DNA from: an uncultured bacterium
GTDB taxonomy: Bacteria > Bacillota_I > Bacilli_A > RFN20 > CAG-826
Length of the DNA: 64,000 nucleotides
Direction of reading: 5' to 3'
Assembly: GCA_949283025.1 (NCBI GenBank)
Contig: CASDRB010000005.1
Coordinates: 23,588 to 87,587, forward strand
Part shown: piece by piece, positions 28,025-30,801 of the stretch
Layout: every line of letters begins with the position of its first letter
Numbering within the stretch: the stretch's first letter is position 1
Notes under the pieces: generated by a model
The model's input: only the letters and a program-made list of their open reading frames with translations
The model's database searches: none
What the model was told of the DNA's origin: nothing
Made by a program: the position numbers and the translations under genes

Positions 28025-30133
28025 TTATTCATCTAGTGATGAAATTAATGTGTCTACCGATGCGTCTGATGGCATTCTTAAATCTCCGCGCGGAGAAATA
28101 GAAACTGAACCAACTTTTATTCCATCTGGAAGGCAAGACCTTTTAAATTGATTGGCATAAAAACGTTTCAAAAATATTTTCAACCATTTTTTTATGTCTT
28201 CCGAAGAATATTTTCCTTGATAAGCATATTCTGCTAAATATGCAATTTTTTTTGGTTCAAAATTGCATCTTAAAAAATAATAAATAAAGAAGTCAATTAG
28301 CTCATATGGTCCTATTTTTTCTTCTGTTTTTTGTTGAATTTGACCATTTATTGTTGGCAATAATTCTGGCGAAATAGGCGTATCGATTATATCTTTTAAT
28401 ACATTGCTTGCTTCTGGATGATCTAATGCATATGTATTCACTAATTCAATTACTAATGTTTTTGGAATTGAAGCATTGACGCCATACATTGACATATGAT
28501 CACCGCAATATGTTGTCCATCCTAAACACAATTCGCTCAAATCGCCAGTTCCAACCATTATTCCATTGACATCATTGGCAAAATCCATCAACACTTGCGT
28601 TCTTTCTCGCGCTTGAGAGTTTTCATATGTTGTATTTTTATTTTCTATATCATGACCAATATCTAAAAAATGTTGTTTTGTTGCTTGAGAAATATTTATT
28701 TCTTTAAAACTAACTCCTAAAATTTTTGCTAAAAGCAAAGCATTGTCATGTGTTCTTTGACTAGTTCCAAAGCACGGCAATGTTATTGCATAAACCTTTT
28801 TTAAATCAAATCTTAAAATAGCAAATGCTTCTTTAGCGACTAATAATGCTAATGTTGAATCTAATCCACCGCTTAATCCGACAACCAAACTATCTGCATG
28901 TGCAGATTGAACTCTTTTAACTAAACTCATCGCTTGCATAGTTAAAATTTTTCGATATCGTTTTAAAGCTTCGTCACAATTAGAAATTAGAAATGGGTTT
29001 TGTGAAACGTGGACAGTCAATTTATCAAATGATAAATCGATTGAAAATCCAATACGCTTATAATTGTCATGGTGATTCTCAAATGTCGACATTCTTTTTC
29101 GATCATTAATTACTCGAGGAATATCTAATTCGGTATAAATAAATTCATTTTTAAACAATTGTGATTCTTTTAAAATTCGTCCGTTTCTTGAAATGATATT
29201 ATGAGATGAAAAAACTACATCAGTTGTCGATTCTCCGTTTCCAGCTGAACAATATACATAACCGCAACAAAGACGCGCGGAAGTCATGTTTACTAAATTA
29301 CGACGATAATCGTCTTTACTGACTAGTTCGTTTGACGCCGATAAATTGACAATGACAGATGCGCCATTTAATGCTGCTAAAGTTGATGGTGGATTCGGAA
29401 CCCATAAATCTTCACATATCTCAACTCCAATTACAAATTCAACAAAGTTTTCACATTGGAAAAGCATTTTGGTTCCAAAAGGATATAAATTATTATTTAT
29501 AGCTATATATCCACTTTCATTTAATCCAGATGTAAATTGCCTACTTTCATAAAATTCATTATAGTTAGCGATGTATGATTTTGGAACAACTCCTAAAATC
29601 TCTCCTTTACAAATCGCAATTGCACAATTATAAAGTGAATTATCTTTAATTAAAGGTGCGCCAATAAAAAATAATATTTCTTTATTTTTTGAATATTTTT
29701 TCAATTCATCAATGCCATCCATGGTCTTTTTTAAAATAGCGCTTTGCAAAAACAAATCACGACATGTGTAACCAGTTAATGTTAATTCTGGAAAAACAAG
29801 AACTCGAACTTGTTTATCGATAGCAAGATCAATATATTTTTTGATGCTGTCAACATTCTTTTTTACATCGCTAATAGATGTTTGAATGGTTGCGCAACCG
29901 ACTCTTACAAATCCAAATTGATGGCTTTGTTTTTTTATATTAAATATATCTTTATTAGATATGTCAGTTGGTTGGTGACAAAACGATGATAATTTGCTAT
30001 AGCATTTATCTGACATAACTACCAAATCAGAGTAGCCGTTGCGCGTAATAAAAATAGGTTCATCGTCACGATGACACTCTTTTGAAATAGCATTAGTATT
30101 TCTTAAATCTTTTATAGGTTTAATTTTTGGCAT
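28025..30133 (-). CDS. nadE: glutamine-dependent NAD+ synthetase with N-terminal Phd/YefM antitoxin-like domain
   Basis: CN-hydrolase domain (VLVFPELTLTGY) plus NAD-synthase PP-loop (VVGLSGGLDSTL). Residues 1-50 resemble YefM (EPIFITRNGYSDLVVMSDKCYSKL vs [24 protein letters not shown]). Confidence 0.85.
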   Translation of the reverse strand: MPKIKPIKDLRNTNAISKECHRDDEPIFITRNGYSDLVVMSDKCYSKLSSFCHQPTDISNKDIFNIKKQSHQFGFVRVGCATIQTSISDVKKNVDSIKKYIDLAIDKQVRVLVFPELTLTGYTCRDLFLQSAILKKTMDGIDELKKYSKNKEILFFIGAPLIKDNSLYNCAIAICKGEILGVVPKSYIANYNEFYESRQFTSGLNESGYIAINNNLYPFGTKMLFQCENFVEFVIGVEICEDLWVPNPPSTLAALNGASVIVNLSASNELVSKDDYRRNLVNMTSARLCCGYVYCSAGNGESTTDVVFSSHNIISRNGRILKESQLFKNEFIYTELDIPRVINDRKRMSTFENHHDNYKRIGFSIDLSFDKLTVHVSQNPFLISNCDEALKRYRKILTMQAMSLVKRVQSAHADSLVVGLSGGLDSTLALLVAKEAFAILRFDLKKVYAITLPCFGTSQRTHDNALLLAKILGVSFKEINISQATKQHFLDIGHDIENKNTTYENSQARERTQVLMDFANDVNGIMVGTGDLSELCLGWTTYCGDHMSMYGVNASIPKTLVIELVNTYALDHPEASNVLKDIIDTPISPELLPTINGQIQQKTEEKIGPYELIDFFIYYFLRCNFEPKKIAYLAEYAYQGKYSSEDIKKWLKIFLKRFYANQFKRSCLPDGIKVGSVSISPRGDLRMPSDASVDTLISSLDE

Positions 30134-30159
30134 AATATAACCCTCTATACATTTTTATA

Positions 30160-30171
30160 GCATAATTATGC
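30160..30171. promoter_or_regulatory. perfect 12-bp palindrome GCATAATTATGC in the nadE promoter region
   Basis: Lies 27-38 nt upstream of the nadE start codon. Candidate operator. Confidence 0.4.
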
Positions 30172-30186
30172 CACCAATTGTTGCAT

Positions 30187-30801
30187 TTATAAATATAATT
30201 TATTTTTTAAAGTGGTATTTGGACCATGGCCAGGATAGACAATTGTTTCTTCAGGTAAGGAAAATATTTTTTCCAAAGAAGATTTTATTAATCTAAAATT
30301 TGACGTGGGTAAATCATATCGCCCTATTGAACCATCAAATAAACTATCCCCTGTAAACAAACATTTAGATTCTTTTAAATAGAAAACAACGCTACCTTGA
30401 GTGTGATAAGGCGTATGAATGACTTTTATTGGTTCTTCAAGTAAGTTGATAATATCGTTATCAGCAATAATTTTAATATTTTTTACATCAACATTTATTT
30501 CTTCGCCAATTAGAAAACTGCCGTTCAATGATGAGTTACTTAATAATTTTACATCATCGTTAAAAATATAAACCGGCACGTTAAAATCGTTTAGCATTTT
30601 GTTTAATCCAGCGATATGATCAAAGTGAGCATGAGTTAGCAATATTGCTTTAAAATTCAAATTATTATTTTTTATGTAATCGACAATATTTTTATCATAA
30701 TAGCCACAATCTATTAAAACTGCATTGCGCGATTGATCTATTAATAAATAAGAATTAGCTGAAAAAACATCGAAATATTCATTTTTTTTGATTTTAATCA
30801 T
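30187..30801 (-). CDS. metallo-beta-lactamase-fold hydrolase
   Basis: HAHFDH metal-binding motif, 204 aa, glyoxalase II / YqgX-like. Confidence 0.75.
   Translation of the reverse strand: MIKIKKNEYFDVFSANSYLLIDQSRNAVLIDCGYYDKNIVDYIKNNNLNFKAILLTHAHFDHIAGLNKMLNDFNVPVYIFNDDVKLLSNSSLNGSFLIGEEINVDVKNIKIIADNDIINLLEEPIKVIHTPYHTQGSVVFYLKESKCLFTGDSLFDGSIGRYDLPTSNFRLIKSSLEKIFSLPEETIVYPGHGPNTTLKNKLYL

Follow-up and report, generated by a model that had tools for sequence, protein, structure and literature searches.

An NAD+ Synthetase with a Phd/YefM Antitoxin-Type Head and a Conserved Two-Part Promoter Element: Probable Capture of the 5' End of a Toxin-Antitoxin Module

Introduction

In true toxin-antitoxin (TA) modules, the toxin bridges antitoxin dimers, resulting in tight operator binding. 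The heads of Phd/YefM antitoxins are obligate dimerisation domains. DNA-binding domains are also carried by the “trigger enzymes”, in which a metabolic enzyme with an N-terminal domain of this kind controls its own pathway or gene. NadR combines an HTH domain with NMN adenylyltransferase/ribosylnicotinamide kinase, NrtR combines Nudix and winged helix domains, PutA joins a ribbon-helix-helix to proline dehydrogenase, and BirA is likewise an enzyme-repressor fusion. NadR and NrtR are precedents inside NAD metabolism, and the DNA-binding fold of PutA is also found in antitoxins. We know of no report of the Phd/YefM fold on an enzyme.

In the operators of YefM-YoeB (E. coli, S. aureus) and Phd-Doc (phage P1), two antitoxin dimers occupy two adjacent palindromic sites over the promoter, and base recognition involves an Arg at the beta1-alpha1 junction (PMC7544224). 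In S. aureus YefM bound to DNA, the two dimers lie in adjacent major grooves, with Arg10 and Gln11 reading bases and the beta2-beta3 wing touching the minor groove (PMC7544224). The type-1 NAD+ synthetase NadE of M. tuberculosis is octameric (PMC6946656, PMC7196632).

Here, a nadE gene in a 64-kb stretch of DNA (“the window”, coordinates counted from its first letter) was analyzed. Its product resembles the NadR/PutA/BirA type in joining an enzyme to a predicted DNA-binding domain, with a conserved putative site in its own promoter, which is an analogy and not homology. It differs from NadR, NrtR, PutA, and BirA in that the domain has the Phd/YefM fold, apparently co-opted with operator and promoter from a TA module, and in that self-regulation only is indicated, with neither a regulon nor a known ligand switch.

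Results and Discussion

Architecture of the Fused NadE

The features of the locus are collected in Table 1. The head, residues 1-50, had been likened in the initial annotation to the N-terminal half of YefM, and the likeness is borne out by profile, model, and structure comparison. PF02604 (PhdYeFM_antitox) matches residues 3-47 with E = 6e-5 to 1e-4. This match is significant, although its score of 19-23 bits does not reach the Pfam gathering score of 29.8 bits and is thus sub-threshold, because the C-terminal third of the 74-position profile is missing from the window head. The same profile is found at E ≤ 0.01 in 56 of 61 orthologous heads (best 7e-8), several fused orthologues bear a precomputed PF02604 match, and a stand-alone relative (L005) clears the gathering score with 35.5 bits. 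The AF2 model of the head (pLDDT 88) consists of a strand at 3-6, helices at 7-11 and 13-23, strands at 27-31 and 34-39, and a helix at 42-52, which is the beta-alpha-beta-beta-alpha order of the Phd/YefM dimerisation and DNA-binding fold. When this model was compared with the PDB by Foldseek, the top 50 matches were without exception structures of type II antitoxins, almost all from the YefM/Phd family, with TM-scores of 0.49-0.77. A profile search of the PDB with the head (E ≤ 1) gave six matches, five of them Phd/YefM-type antitoxins and one a weak, unrelated aminotransferase.

Table 1. Features of the nadE locus in the 64-kb window.
Feature	Position	Strand	Description	Basis
nadE fusion gene	28025..30133	(-)	702 codons + TAA stop; Phd/YefM-like head, linker, glutaminase domain, NAD synthetase domain	ORF list, translation
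Phd/YefM-fold N-terminal domain, codons 1-50	29984..30133	(-)	presumed dimerisation and DNA-binding head	PF02604, AF2, Foldseek
Flexible linker, codons 51-72	29918..29983	(-)	non-conserved; in place of the antitoxin's toxin-binding tail	column identity 0.21
Glutaminase domain, nitrilase-type, codons 73-350	29084..29917	(-)	catalytic E116, K185, C240	Pfam CN_hydrolase
NAD synthetase (ATP pyrophosphatase) domain, codons 385-702	28028..28981	(-)	SGGLDS P-loop at 421-426	Pfam NAD_synthase
Putative operator half 1	30161..30170	(-)	10-bp palindrome CATAATTATG, core of the 12-mer; last two bases are the TG of the extended -10	
Putative operator half 2	30150..30159	(-)	TATAAAAATG, degenerate TATAATTATG (2 mismatches), in 11-bp register with half 1; -10 hexamer TATAAA at 30154-30159	
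Shine-Dalgarno-like AGAGGG	30141..30146	(-)	7 nt before ATG	read from sequence

The remainder of the 702-aa ORF, as first described, is a normal two-domain NAD synthetase from about residue 72. NCBIfam NF002730 (NAD(+) synthase) matches residues 68-700 at 784 bits (cutoff 473), spanning model positions 5-670 of 677, while Pfam CN_hydrolase and NAD_synthase match residues 81-344 (E = 8e-23) and 402-620 (E = 9e-31), respectively. The catalytic residues are intact: in the alignment, the glutaminase residues E116 and K185 and the P-loop S421-G-G-L-D-S426 are invariant, and 69 of 70 sequences have C240. The nearest solved structure to the catalytic body is M. tuberculosis NadE (3DLA, E = 1e-130), which aligns end to end with residues 70-700, the Glu-Lys-Cys triad and the SGGxDS loop being intact in the fusion. 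Judged by sequence, residues from approximately 70 to 702 are an intact glutamine-dependent NAD+ synthetase of the M. tuberculosis type (type-1). The ~70-residue head plus linker is what M. tuberculosis NadE and the unfused homologues of ~636 aa lack. By its similarity to octameric M. tuberculosis NadE (PMC6946656), the fused enzyme is presumed to be an octamer. The AF2 model of the full-length fusion has a pLDDT of 90, falling below 50 at linker residues 53-59, and the linker is probably disordered according to this model. The genes adjoining nadE encode an MBL-fold hydrolase and EF-P.

Relatives of the Head and Loss of the Toxin Module

The genome scan for relatives of the head was performed with an alignment of eight heads. 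The closest relatives are stand-alone antitoxins of ~87 aa in Clostridia, Negativicutes, and Bacilli. These Firmicutes antitoxins (PF02604) have the same fold as the NadE head, with 57-72% identity over residues 1-50, and are paired with toxins of the ParE/RelE superfamily (PF05016): a ParE-like frame follows the antitoxin gene in 64 of 77 stand-alone loci, and the three such frames tested all match PF05016. The nearest kin are therefore antitoxins with ParE-like toxins rather than those of YefM-YoeB or Phd-Doc. The folds of the latter match the head with TM-scores of 0.7-0.77, but only ~20-28% of residues are identical, the toxin partner belongs to a different family from that of the head's closest relatives, and the operator has a GTAC core, whereas that of nadE has CATAATTATG, with sites in 11-bp register. 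A search of a plasmid database returned only four distant matches (42-53% identity), of which one carries the annotation Phd/YefM family antitoxin.

Residues common to fused and stand-alone heads are I4, P6, I7, L10, R11, T13, P26, I29, T30, K31, N32, G33, Y34, V38, S41, and Y45. Two conserved stretches can be recognized among them, L10-R11-x-T13, which falls where beta1 meets alpha1, and T30-K31-N32-G33-Y34, which belongs to the beta2-beta3 hairpin, so that the Arg and the hairpin are shared by the NadE head and the Firmicutes Phd-ParE antitoxins. On alignment, these stretches are the same regions that contact DNA in S. aureus YefM (PMC7544224), the register of R11 with Arg10 being taken from profile coordinates.

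Unlike these antitoxins, the NadE head has lost the toxin-binding tail and the toxin gene and is covalently joined to an essential enzyme of 630 aa. The C-terminal toxin-neutralising segment is absent, as had been pointed out for the corresponding part of YefM; after residue ~50 there is the non-conserved linker, 12-40 aa long across 60 fused orthologues, and then the NadE domains. The earlier statement that no toxin-like ORF lies nearby extends to the whole window, where neither a ParE/RelE-like frame nor a second Phd-like frame was found, and 12 orthologous loci likewise contained no ParE-like frame and no stand-alone paralogue.

These observations bear on the proposal that the head serves mainly to link NadE to resident or incoming Phd-ParE modules, through heterodimers or operator competition, thereby coupling NAD synthesis to TA state or acting in anti-addiction. 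Stand-alone modules whose operator is practically the same and whose head is ~65% identical are indeed widespread and include L012 and L063 from metagenome genomes of Bacilli and Erysipelotrichaceae. However, neither the window nor the 12 orthologous loci hold a stand-alone paralogue or ParE, the feature that is conserved is the operator at nadE itself, and the tail is gone, so that direct protection by the NadE head is impossible. Such a role is considered very unlikely. It is also quite unlikely that the head is fully compatible with the Phd-ParE modules of gut Firmicutes (same operator, ~65% identical dimer interface) and wires an essential NAD enzyme into the TA regulatory network. If that were so, nadE could come under repression by the antitoxins of mobile TA modules, or these antitoxins could enter mixed dimers with NadE; abundant NadE could in turn shut down the promoters of incoming TA modules; and NAD supply would be coupled to the state of TA modules and mobile elements, or a new anti-addiction device would have arisen.

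Distribution and Conservation of the Fusion

Orthologues in related genomes carry the same extension, which was a point raised at the outset: 107 of the best 120 homologue clusters are ~700 aa long with the same N-terminal part. Identity in these 120 clusters ranges from 49% to 99%, with only six above 62%. The fused clusters (>100) come from metagenome genomes of Bacilli and Erysipelotrichaceae, and the arrangement is constant across unrelated genomic contexts. Column identity is 0.62 in the N-domain, 0.60 in the glutaminase, and 0.71 in the synthetase, compared with 0.21 in the linker. In a NJ tree of the catalytic part, the unfused proteins fall in one cluster, with deep nodes unresolved. 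No conserved internal Met precedes the catalytic domain in the N-terminal sequences compared. By these sequence comparisons the fusion is real, ancient, widespread, and under purifying selection, and for that reason the suggestion of a TA locus that decayed in place is unsupported.

The fusion is not an artefact, since it is common to more than 100 protein clusters. A sequencing or frameshift error that misjoined a small antitoxin ORF and nadE, or a recently decayed and functionless TA locus, might be invoked from the sub-threshold Pfam score of the window head and otherwise from prior plausibility. Against this, more than 100 independent clusters, drawn from many assemblies, show an unbroken reading frame, the head is conserved like the catalytic domains, and the same arrangement recurs in unrelated surroundings. 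This explanation is accordingly regarded as exceedingly improbable.

The search for other fusions of the head covered the best 150 of 2,625 representative matches. No other enzyme with this head appeared among the longer ones inspected, which were NadE or NadE fragments, a repeat-protein false positive (P0121), and antitoxin variants; four full-length NadE proteins are among the best 150. Neither the architecture nor the operator was found described in the literature on fusions of NadE or NAD synthetase with antitoxins, on the operator string, or in the NADS family survey (PMC3376133). The initial claim that the architecture is undescribed thus stands for the literature covered, but the protein is not unique, since it is present in more than 100 public clusters, which are named only “NAD(+) synthase”.

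The Two-Part Element in the nadE Promoter

The gap upstream of nadE comprises 53 nt (30134-30186), and the perfect 12-nt palindrome GCATAATTATGC is located within it at 30160-30171, 27-38 nt upstream of the ATG, exactly as annotated. Within the window alone this palindrome has no significance, as 39 perfect 12-nt palindromes were counted compared with 41.4 +/- 5.7 in dinucleotide shuffles. Its significance therefore comes only from conservation across loci. That conservation, read from sequence, identifies as the functional unit not the 12-mer but a 21-bp element in two parts, CATAATTATG-C-TATAATTATG, whose first half is the 12-mer palindrome and whose second half harbours the -10 box. In the window it spans 30150-30170, over TGnTATAAA, and its conservation extends to 90 loci. 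The window copy starts 37 nt before the ATG and has two mismatches to the consensus CATAATTATGCTATAATTATG. A purine-rich box equivalent to AGAGGG is also present in related loci.

In 54 of the 89 related loci, the exact 10-mer CATAATTATG occurs no more than 80 nt before the start codon; allowing one mismatch raises this to 82 of 89. There are 56 exact upstream copies and a single one elsewhere in 611 kb. In the window, the copy at nadE is the sole exact one; a regulon check located six copies with one mismatch elsewhere, none obviously promoter-linked. The full 21-mer is found upstream of 13 of 13 NadE fusions with 1-6 mismatches (some fused orthologues having 5-6) and with differing neighbour genes; in 10 loci it lies 34-38 nt before the ATG and in the other 3 it lies 23-26 nt before it. 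It also precedes 77 stand-alone antitoxin genes, with a median of one mismatch, and there it lies over the -10 box at the same distance to the start codon as in nadE. By comparison, ~1,700 random windows of 93 nt taken from these loci gave best matches with at least 6 mismatches, with a mode of ~10. Two unfused nadE loci, used as a negative control, lacked the element, their best matches having 9-10 mismatches. Head and operator are therefore tightly associated throughout the family.

Other regulatory signals were sought. A consensus promoter scan of the window yielded 18 promoter-like sites compared with 23 expected, and the TGnTATAAA promoter was not picked. The entire window was also compared with Rfam, in case a riboswitch or leader RNA precedes nadE, with zero matches. 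A terminator-like hairpin in the head-coding region (30060-30074) was not conserved in seven orthologues and is attributed to chance.

Part of the conservation of the element could be due to promoter function, given the -10 box inside half 2. This leads to an alternative in which the head is an oligomerisation or protein-interaction module without DNA binding, stabilising NadE assemblies or recruiting a partner, while the conserved element is a strong promoter that came along. The position of the -10 box, the obligate dimerisation by Phd/YefM heads, and the weak DNA binding often seen for free antitoxins without toxin (PMC7544224) are all compatible with it. Nevertheless, the best-conserved part of the element is half 1, CATAATTATG, which lies in the spacer and is palindromic. 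A sigma-A promoter needs no specific spacer sequence. Moreover, fused heads retain the beta1-alpha1 Arg and the beta2-beta3 hairpin in addition to the hydrophobic core, and unfused type-1 NadE assembles without such a domain (PMC6946656, PMC7196632). A head that does not bind DNA is thus thought unlikely.

Proposed Origin and Mechanism

Of the readings offered at first, an acquired antitoxin-derived domain that autoregulates nadE is the best supported, the 21-mer being present at all 13 fusions and at 77 antitoxin genes and absent at the two unfused nadE. On the sequence comparisons above, it is likely that the promoter, operator, and DNA-binding head of a Phd-ParE module were captured and that NadE now represses its own gene. 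The 5' end of nadE, from the promoter and two-part operator through the ribosome-binding site to codon ~50, would derive from the Phd/YefM antitoxin gene of a Phd-ParE type II module, and would have been fused in frame, via the flexible linker, to a complete type-1 NAD+ synthetase.

Repression may then proceed in four steps. The N-terminal heads of two subunits would pair as a usual Phd/YefM dimer. Two such dimers would subsequently fill the two neighbouring 10-bp halves of CATAATTATG-C-TATAATTATG, which overlap the TGnTATAAT -10 element. We infer both homodimerisation and sequence-specific operator binding from the co-occurrence of head and operator and from the conserved putative contact residues. 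RNA polymerase would thereby be blocked, such that NadE represses its own gene in negative autoregulation of the NadE level. Finally, the NadE body, presumed octameric, would supply multivalency without toxin. In comparison with Phd-ParE modules, multivalency would come from the enzyme oligomer and not from the toxin, and conditional cooperativity cannot apply. Bridging by the octamer, like any ligand control of the repression, is hypothetical.

Significance

To our knowledge, this would be the first known case of a core metabolic enzyme co-opting the repressor head of a TA module together with its operator and promoter. If the proposed capture is true, it would show that housekeeping genes can receive ready-made autoregulatory cassettes from TA modules. 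It also suggests that a Phd/YefM head may bind its operator tightly in a toxin-independent manner, with an enzyme oligomer as the scaffold, which bears on the evolution of conditional cooperativity. Furthermore, comparative genomics here defines the predicted operator for a Phd-ParE family that is very common among Firmicutes. For NAD homeostasis, the fused NadE would represent, after NadR and NrtR, a third type of enzyme-linked regulator, found in a large clade of gut and rumen Bacilli that has received little study.

Enzyme body and N-terminal head of NadE

The initial annotation had described the nadE product as a two-domain glutamine-dependent NAD synthetase from about residue 72, preceded by a Phd/YefM-like N-terminus, and both parts of this description stand. 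Residues 68-700 match NF002730, the NCBIfam equivalog for NAD(+) synthase, with 784 bits against a cutoff of 473, and both Pfam domains are present (see the table). The closest solved structure for the body (residues 70-700, E=1e-130) is M. tuberculosis NadE (3DLA), a member of the “type 1” glutamine-dependent NAD+ synthetases, which are octameric (PMC6946656, PMC7196632). In a 70-sequence alignment, the glutaminase residues E116 and K185 show no variation, nor does the SGGLDS loop, and C240 is found in 69 sequences. Since the NF002730 match and these catalytic residues are retained, the enzyme part looks fully functional, its sequence being that of a bona fide type-1 NadE.

Residues 3-47 of the head match Pfam PhdYeFM_antitox (PF02604) with E ~1e-4 and 22-23 bits, which falls under the 29.8-bit gathering threshold because the last third of the profile is missing. 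Of 61 orthologous N-domains, 56 match this family too, and essentially no other. A head profile searched against the PDB retrieved five Phd/YefM-type antitoxins (Rv2865, YefM, Phd and pneumococcal antitoxins), the sixth match being a weak, unrelated aminotransferase (E=0.74). The AlphaFold model of the head (pLDDT 88) displays the order beta1-alpha1-beta2-beta3-alpha2, and when it was compared with the PDB by Foldseek, every one of the best 50 matches was a type II antitoxin structure, almost always from the YefM/Phd family (TM up to 0.77, rmsd ~2 Å). From the agreement of orthologue matches, profile matches and predicted fold, assignment of the head to the Phd/YefM domain superfamily is secure. 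The full-length model (pLDDT 90) shows the head as a globule of its own, connected to the body through a segment in which pLDDT drops below 50 at residues 53-59.

Features of the nadE region and of related genomic loci (L numbers) compared with the window
Feature	Sequence	Position	Strand	Remark
nadE fusion ORF, 702 aa	window	28025-30133	minus	ORF translation
CN_hydrolase	NadE fusion	residues 81-344		Pfam
NAD_synthase	NadE fusion	residues 402-620		Pfam
Hairpin, TCATCGTGACGATGA then T-run	window	30060-30074	both	terminator-like; head codons ~20-28
21-bp element, window copy	window	30150-30170		2 mismatches, both in second half (TATAAAAATG)
12-nt palindrome GCATAATTATGC	window	30160-30171		in 53-nt gap upstream of nadE
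MBL-fold hydrolase gene, 204 aa	window	30187-30801	minus	directly upstream of nadE
efp	window			downstream of nadE
NUDIX hydrolase gene	L085	5114-5653		starts 2 nt past nadE-fusion stop
SIR2-family gene	L090	5066-5800		convergent with fused nadE
Phosphatase-NUDIX fusion gene	L087	974-2053		close to fused nadE
Phosphatase-NUDIX fusion gene	L088	60-1148		close to fused nadE
130-143-aa antitoxin variant	L010	4001-4408		
Truncated ParE-like ORF, 58 aa	L002	4398-4574		in stand-alone antitoxin locus

Spread and conservation of the fusion

Proteins of ~700 aa with a head of identical type occur in 107 of the best 120 homologue clusters, at 49-99% identity to the query and above 62% in just six. Named fused homologues come from “Bacilli bacterium”, Coprobacillus and Erysipelotrichaceae metagenome genomes; unfused homologues of ~636 aa, without the head, include named Konateibacter and Galacturonibacter proteins. 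In public records the fused proteins are named just “NAD(+) synthase”, some with a precomputed PF02604 match. The mean column identity among 60 fused sequences reaches 0.62 over the head, 0.60 over the glutaminase and 0.71 over the synthetase, and is 0.21 over the linker of 12-40 residues. An assembly or frameshift artefact, in which a stop or frameshift would split a small ORF from nadE, is excluded by these clusters and by domain conservation, and a recently decayed TA locus (decay in place had been among the readings proposed) by a head conserved like the catalytic domains; artefact and decay are both effectively refuted. Judged on these alignments, the fusion is real, old and selected.

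A 21-bp element shared by fused and stand-alone genes

The palindrome reported in the 53-nt gap is located exactly as claimed. On its own it is not evidence, because the window holds 39 perfect 12-nt palindromes compared with 41.4±5.7 in dinucleotide shuffles. The first clue to a wider element came from read-through translations 5' of many related genes, which spell “...HNYAII...” (CATAATTATGCTATAAT). An exact copy of the 10-bp palindrome CATAATTATG is found within the 80 nt that precede the start codon in 54 of 89 related loci, a number that rises to 82 when one mismatch is allowed; one copy occurs elsewhere in 611 kb of these loci, and the nadE copy is the single exact one in the 64 kb of the window. 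Anchored alignment yields a 21-bp two-part element, CATAATTATG-C-TATAATTATG, composed of two copies in an 11-bp register, the first sitting in the promoter spacer and the second holding a TGnTATAAT extended -10 box. Each of the 13 NadE-fusion loci (the window, L001, L016 and L081-L090), several of which have entirely different neighbouring genes, carries it with 1-6 mismatches, and 77 stand-alone antitoxin loci carry it with a median of 1 mismatch, whereas ~1,700 random 93-nt windows of related loci were never better than 6 mismatches (mode ~10). Upstream of two unfused nadE genes, the best match had just 9-10 mismatches.

The distance from element start to ATG is 34-38 nt in ten NadE-fusion loci and 23-26 nt in three without a Shine-Dalgarno sequence (L086, L087 and L088). 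In these three the element ends 2-5 nt from the start codon, and ~7-10 nt separate the embedded -10 box from the ATG, a spacing suggestive of leaderless nadE mRNAs in this subclade.

Stand-alone relatives and origin of the head

When every GTDB species was scanned through a single genome, 564 encoded relatives of the head were confirmed, and the best 80 were kept. These comprise 2 NadE fusions and, for the remainder, mostly ~87-aa ORFs from Lachnospiraceae, Oscillospiraceae, Sporomusa, Desulfosporosinus, Clostridium, Halanaerobium, Bacilli and others. The NadE head and the first 45-58 residues of these ORFs share 57-72% identity. One representative, at 35.5 bits, scored above the Pfam PhdYeFM gathering score. 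The overlapping downstream ORF in three tested stand-alone loci encodes a ParE_toxin/RelE-StbE family protein, and a ParE-like frame lies 3' of the antitoxin in 64 of 77. No such frame was found in the window, in line with the earlier remark that no YoeB/Txe/Doc-like toxin is nearby, or in 12 NadE-fusion loci. Since tail and toxin are both absent, the fusion protein, unlike its relatives in TA pairs, is not a TA antitoxin. The two kinds of gene have head, promoter, operator and ribosome-binding-site spacing in common, which points to capture of an antitoxin gene's entire 5' cassette as one unit.

When the head profile was run exhaustively against 1.8 billion representative proteins, 2,625 relatives reached E<=1e-3. 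The longer proteins inspected in the best 150 of these proved to be NadE or pieces of it, apart from one repeat-protein false positive, so that NadE is, by sequence match, the sole enzyme partner of the head seen among them. The false positive, the 488-aa library protein P0121, was the top-scoring match; it is built from ~80-aa repeats in tandem (“VESVRFTGDNIGLSNDVDILTLTSDGTTGDVALRG...”), six stretches of which were matched, and none of its Pfam matches contains a stretch that is significant individually, so that it was rejected as a compositional or repeat artefact and no relative.

A 130-143-aa antitoxin variant was observed in Oscillospiraceae/Clostridia MAGs (L010, L011, L015, L017, L041, L054 and L071) and in library protein P0131. 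Head and operator-like element are as in stand-alone antitoxins, and the tail is swapped for a ~80-aa C-terminal region (“...MCFLTEQ.P.WA.MLADVLAQNHIPF...”) for which no Pfam or NCBIfam match was found. No ParE-like frame follows it, and the variant may have another toxin partner or be another domesticated form. In some stand-alone loci (L042 downstream of 4264; L021), ORF listing revealed no intact ParE ORF, and ParE-like sequence was still found by frame-based search; in L002 the ORF is truncated. All three retain antitoxin and operator-like element and look like natural cases in which the toxin was lost and the antitoxin stayed, possibly an intermediate step towards domestication.

Genomic neighbourhood

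Gene order around nadE is kept in close relatives: DEAD helicase, AP endonuclease 2, ispG (opposite strand), rpmG (not called in locus L083), MBL hydrolase, nadE, efp, PlsY-type (G3P_acyltransf) and gyrB-like. The syntenic MBL-fold hydrolase has orthologues with precomputed Pfam matches to Lactamase_B and also Anti-Pycsar_Apyc1 (PF23023). The stretch between its gene and nadE revealed no terminator-like site, so read-through into nadE is possible. The hairpin within the head codons is probably due to chance, as it is not conserved in 7 orthologues. The whole window (31% GC) gave no Rfam match at gathering threshold, whether tRNA, rRNA or riboswitch. In some genomes fused nadE has NAD-related neighbours, namely the NUDIX, SIR2-family and phosphatase-NUDIX genes of the table, and in L086-L088 a RimK-like ATP-grasp gene is divergent from it.

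Proposed autoregulation of nadE

In the S. aureus YefM-YoeB-DNA complex, two YefM dimers occupy adjacent major grooves of a two-part palindrome overlapping the promoter; helix 1 opens with Arg10/Gln11, which read bases, the beta2-beta3 loop touches the minor groove, and the toxin bridges both dimers (PMC7544224). Residues at least 80% conserved in fused and stand-alone heads alike are I4, P6, I7, L10, R11, T13, P26, I29, T30, K31, N32, G33, Y34, V38, S41 and Y45, which take in the entire beta2-beta3 hairpin as well as an Arg that never varies at the beta1-alpha1 junction. By analogy with that structure, and from these conserved residues, we infer that NadE heads would dimerise and bind both operator halves, occluding the -10 box and repressing nadE. 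The presumed octameric body, with its flexible tethers, would present several head dimers together, and the enzyme oligomer could thereby give the avidity normally supplied by the toxin. It is unlikely that the head is purely an oligomerisation or interaction module and the 21-bp element a mere promoter, which would account neither for the palindromic half in the spacer being conserved best nor for the retention of putative DNA-contact residues. A role in cross-talk or anti-addiction with resident Phd-ParE modules, which share the operator, is quite improbable. For repression by the heads themselves, homeostatic negative autoregulation of NadE abundance would be the simplest outcome, and ligand control is conceivable.

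No published description of the NadE-Phd/YefM architecture or of the 21-bp operator was found by full-text searches of the literature, among them the NAD synthetase family survey. NadR, NrtR, PutA and BirA are enzyme-repressor fusions and represent the nearest functional analogues, by analogy and not homology. The NadE-head fusion is conserved, well defined and easily tested, with a head whose DNA binding is putative.
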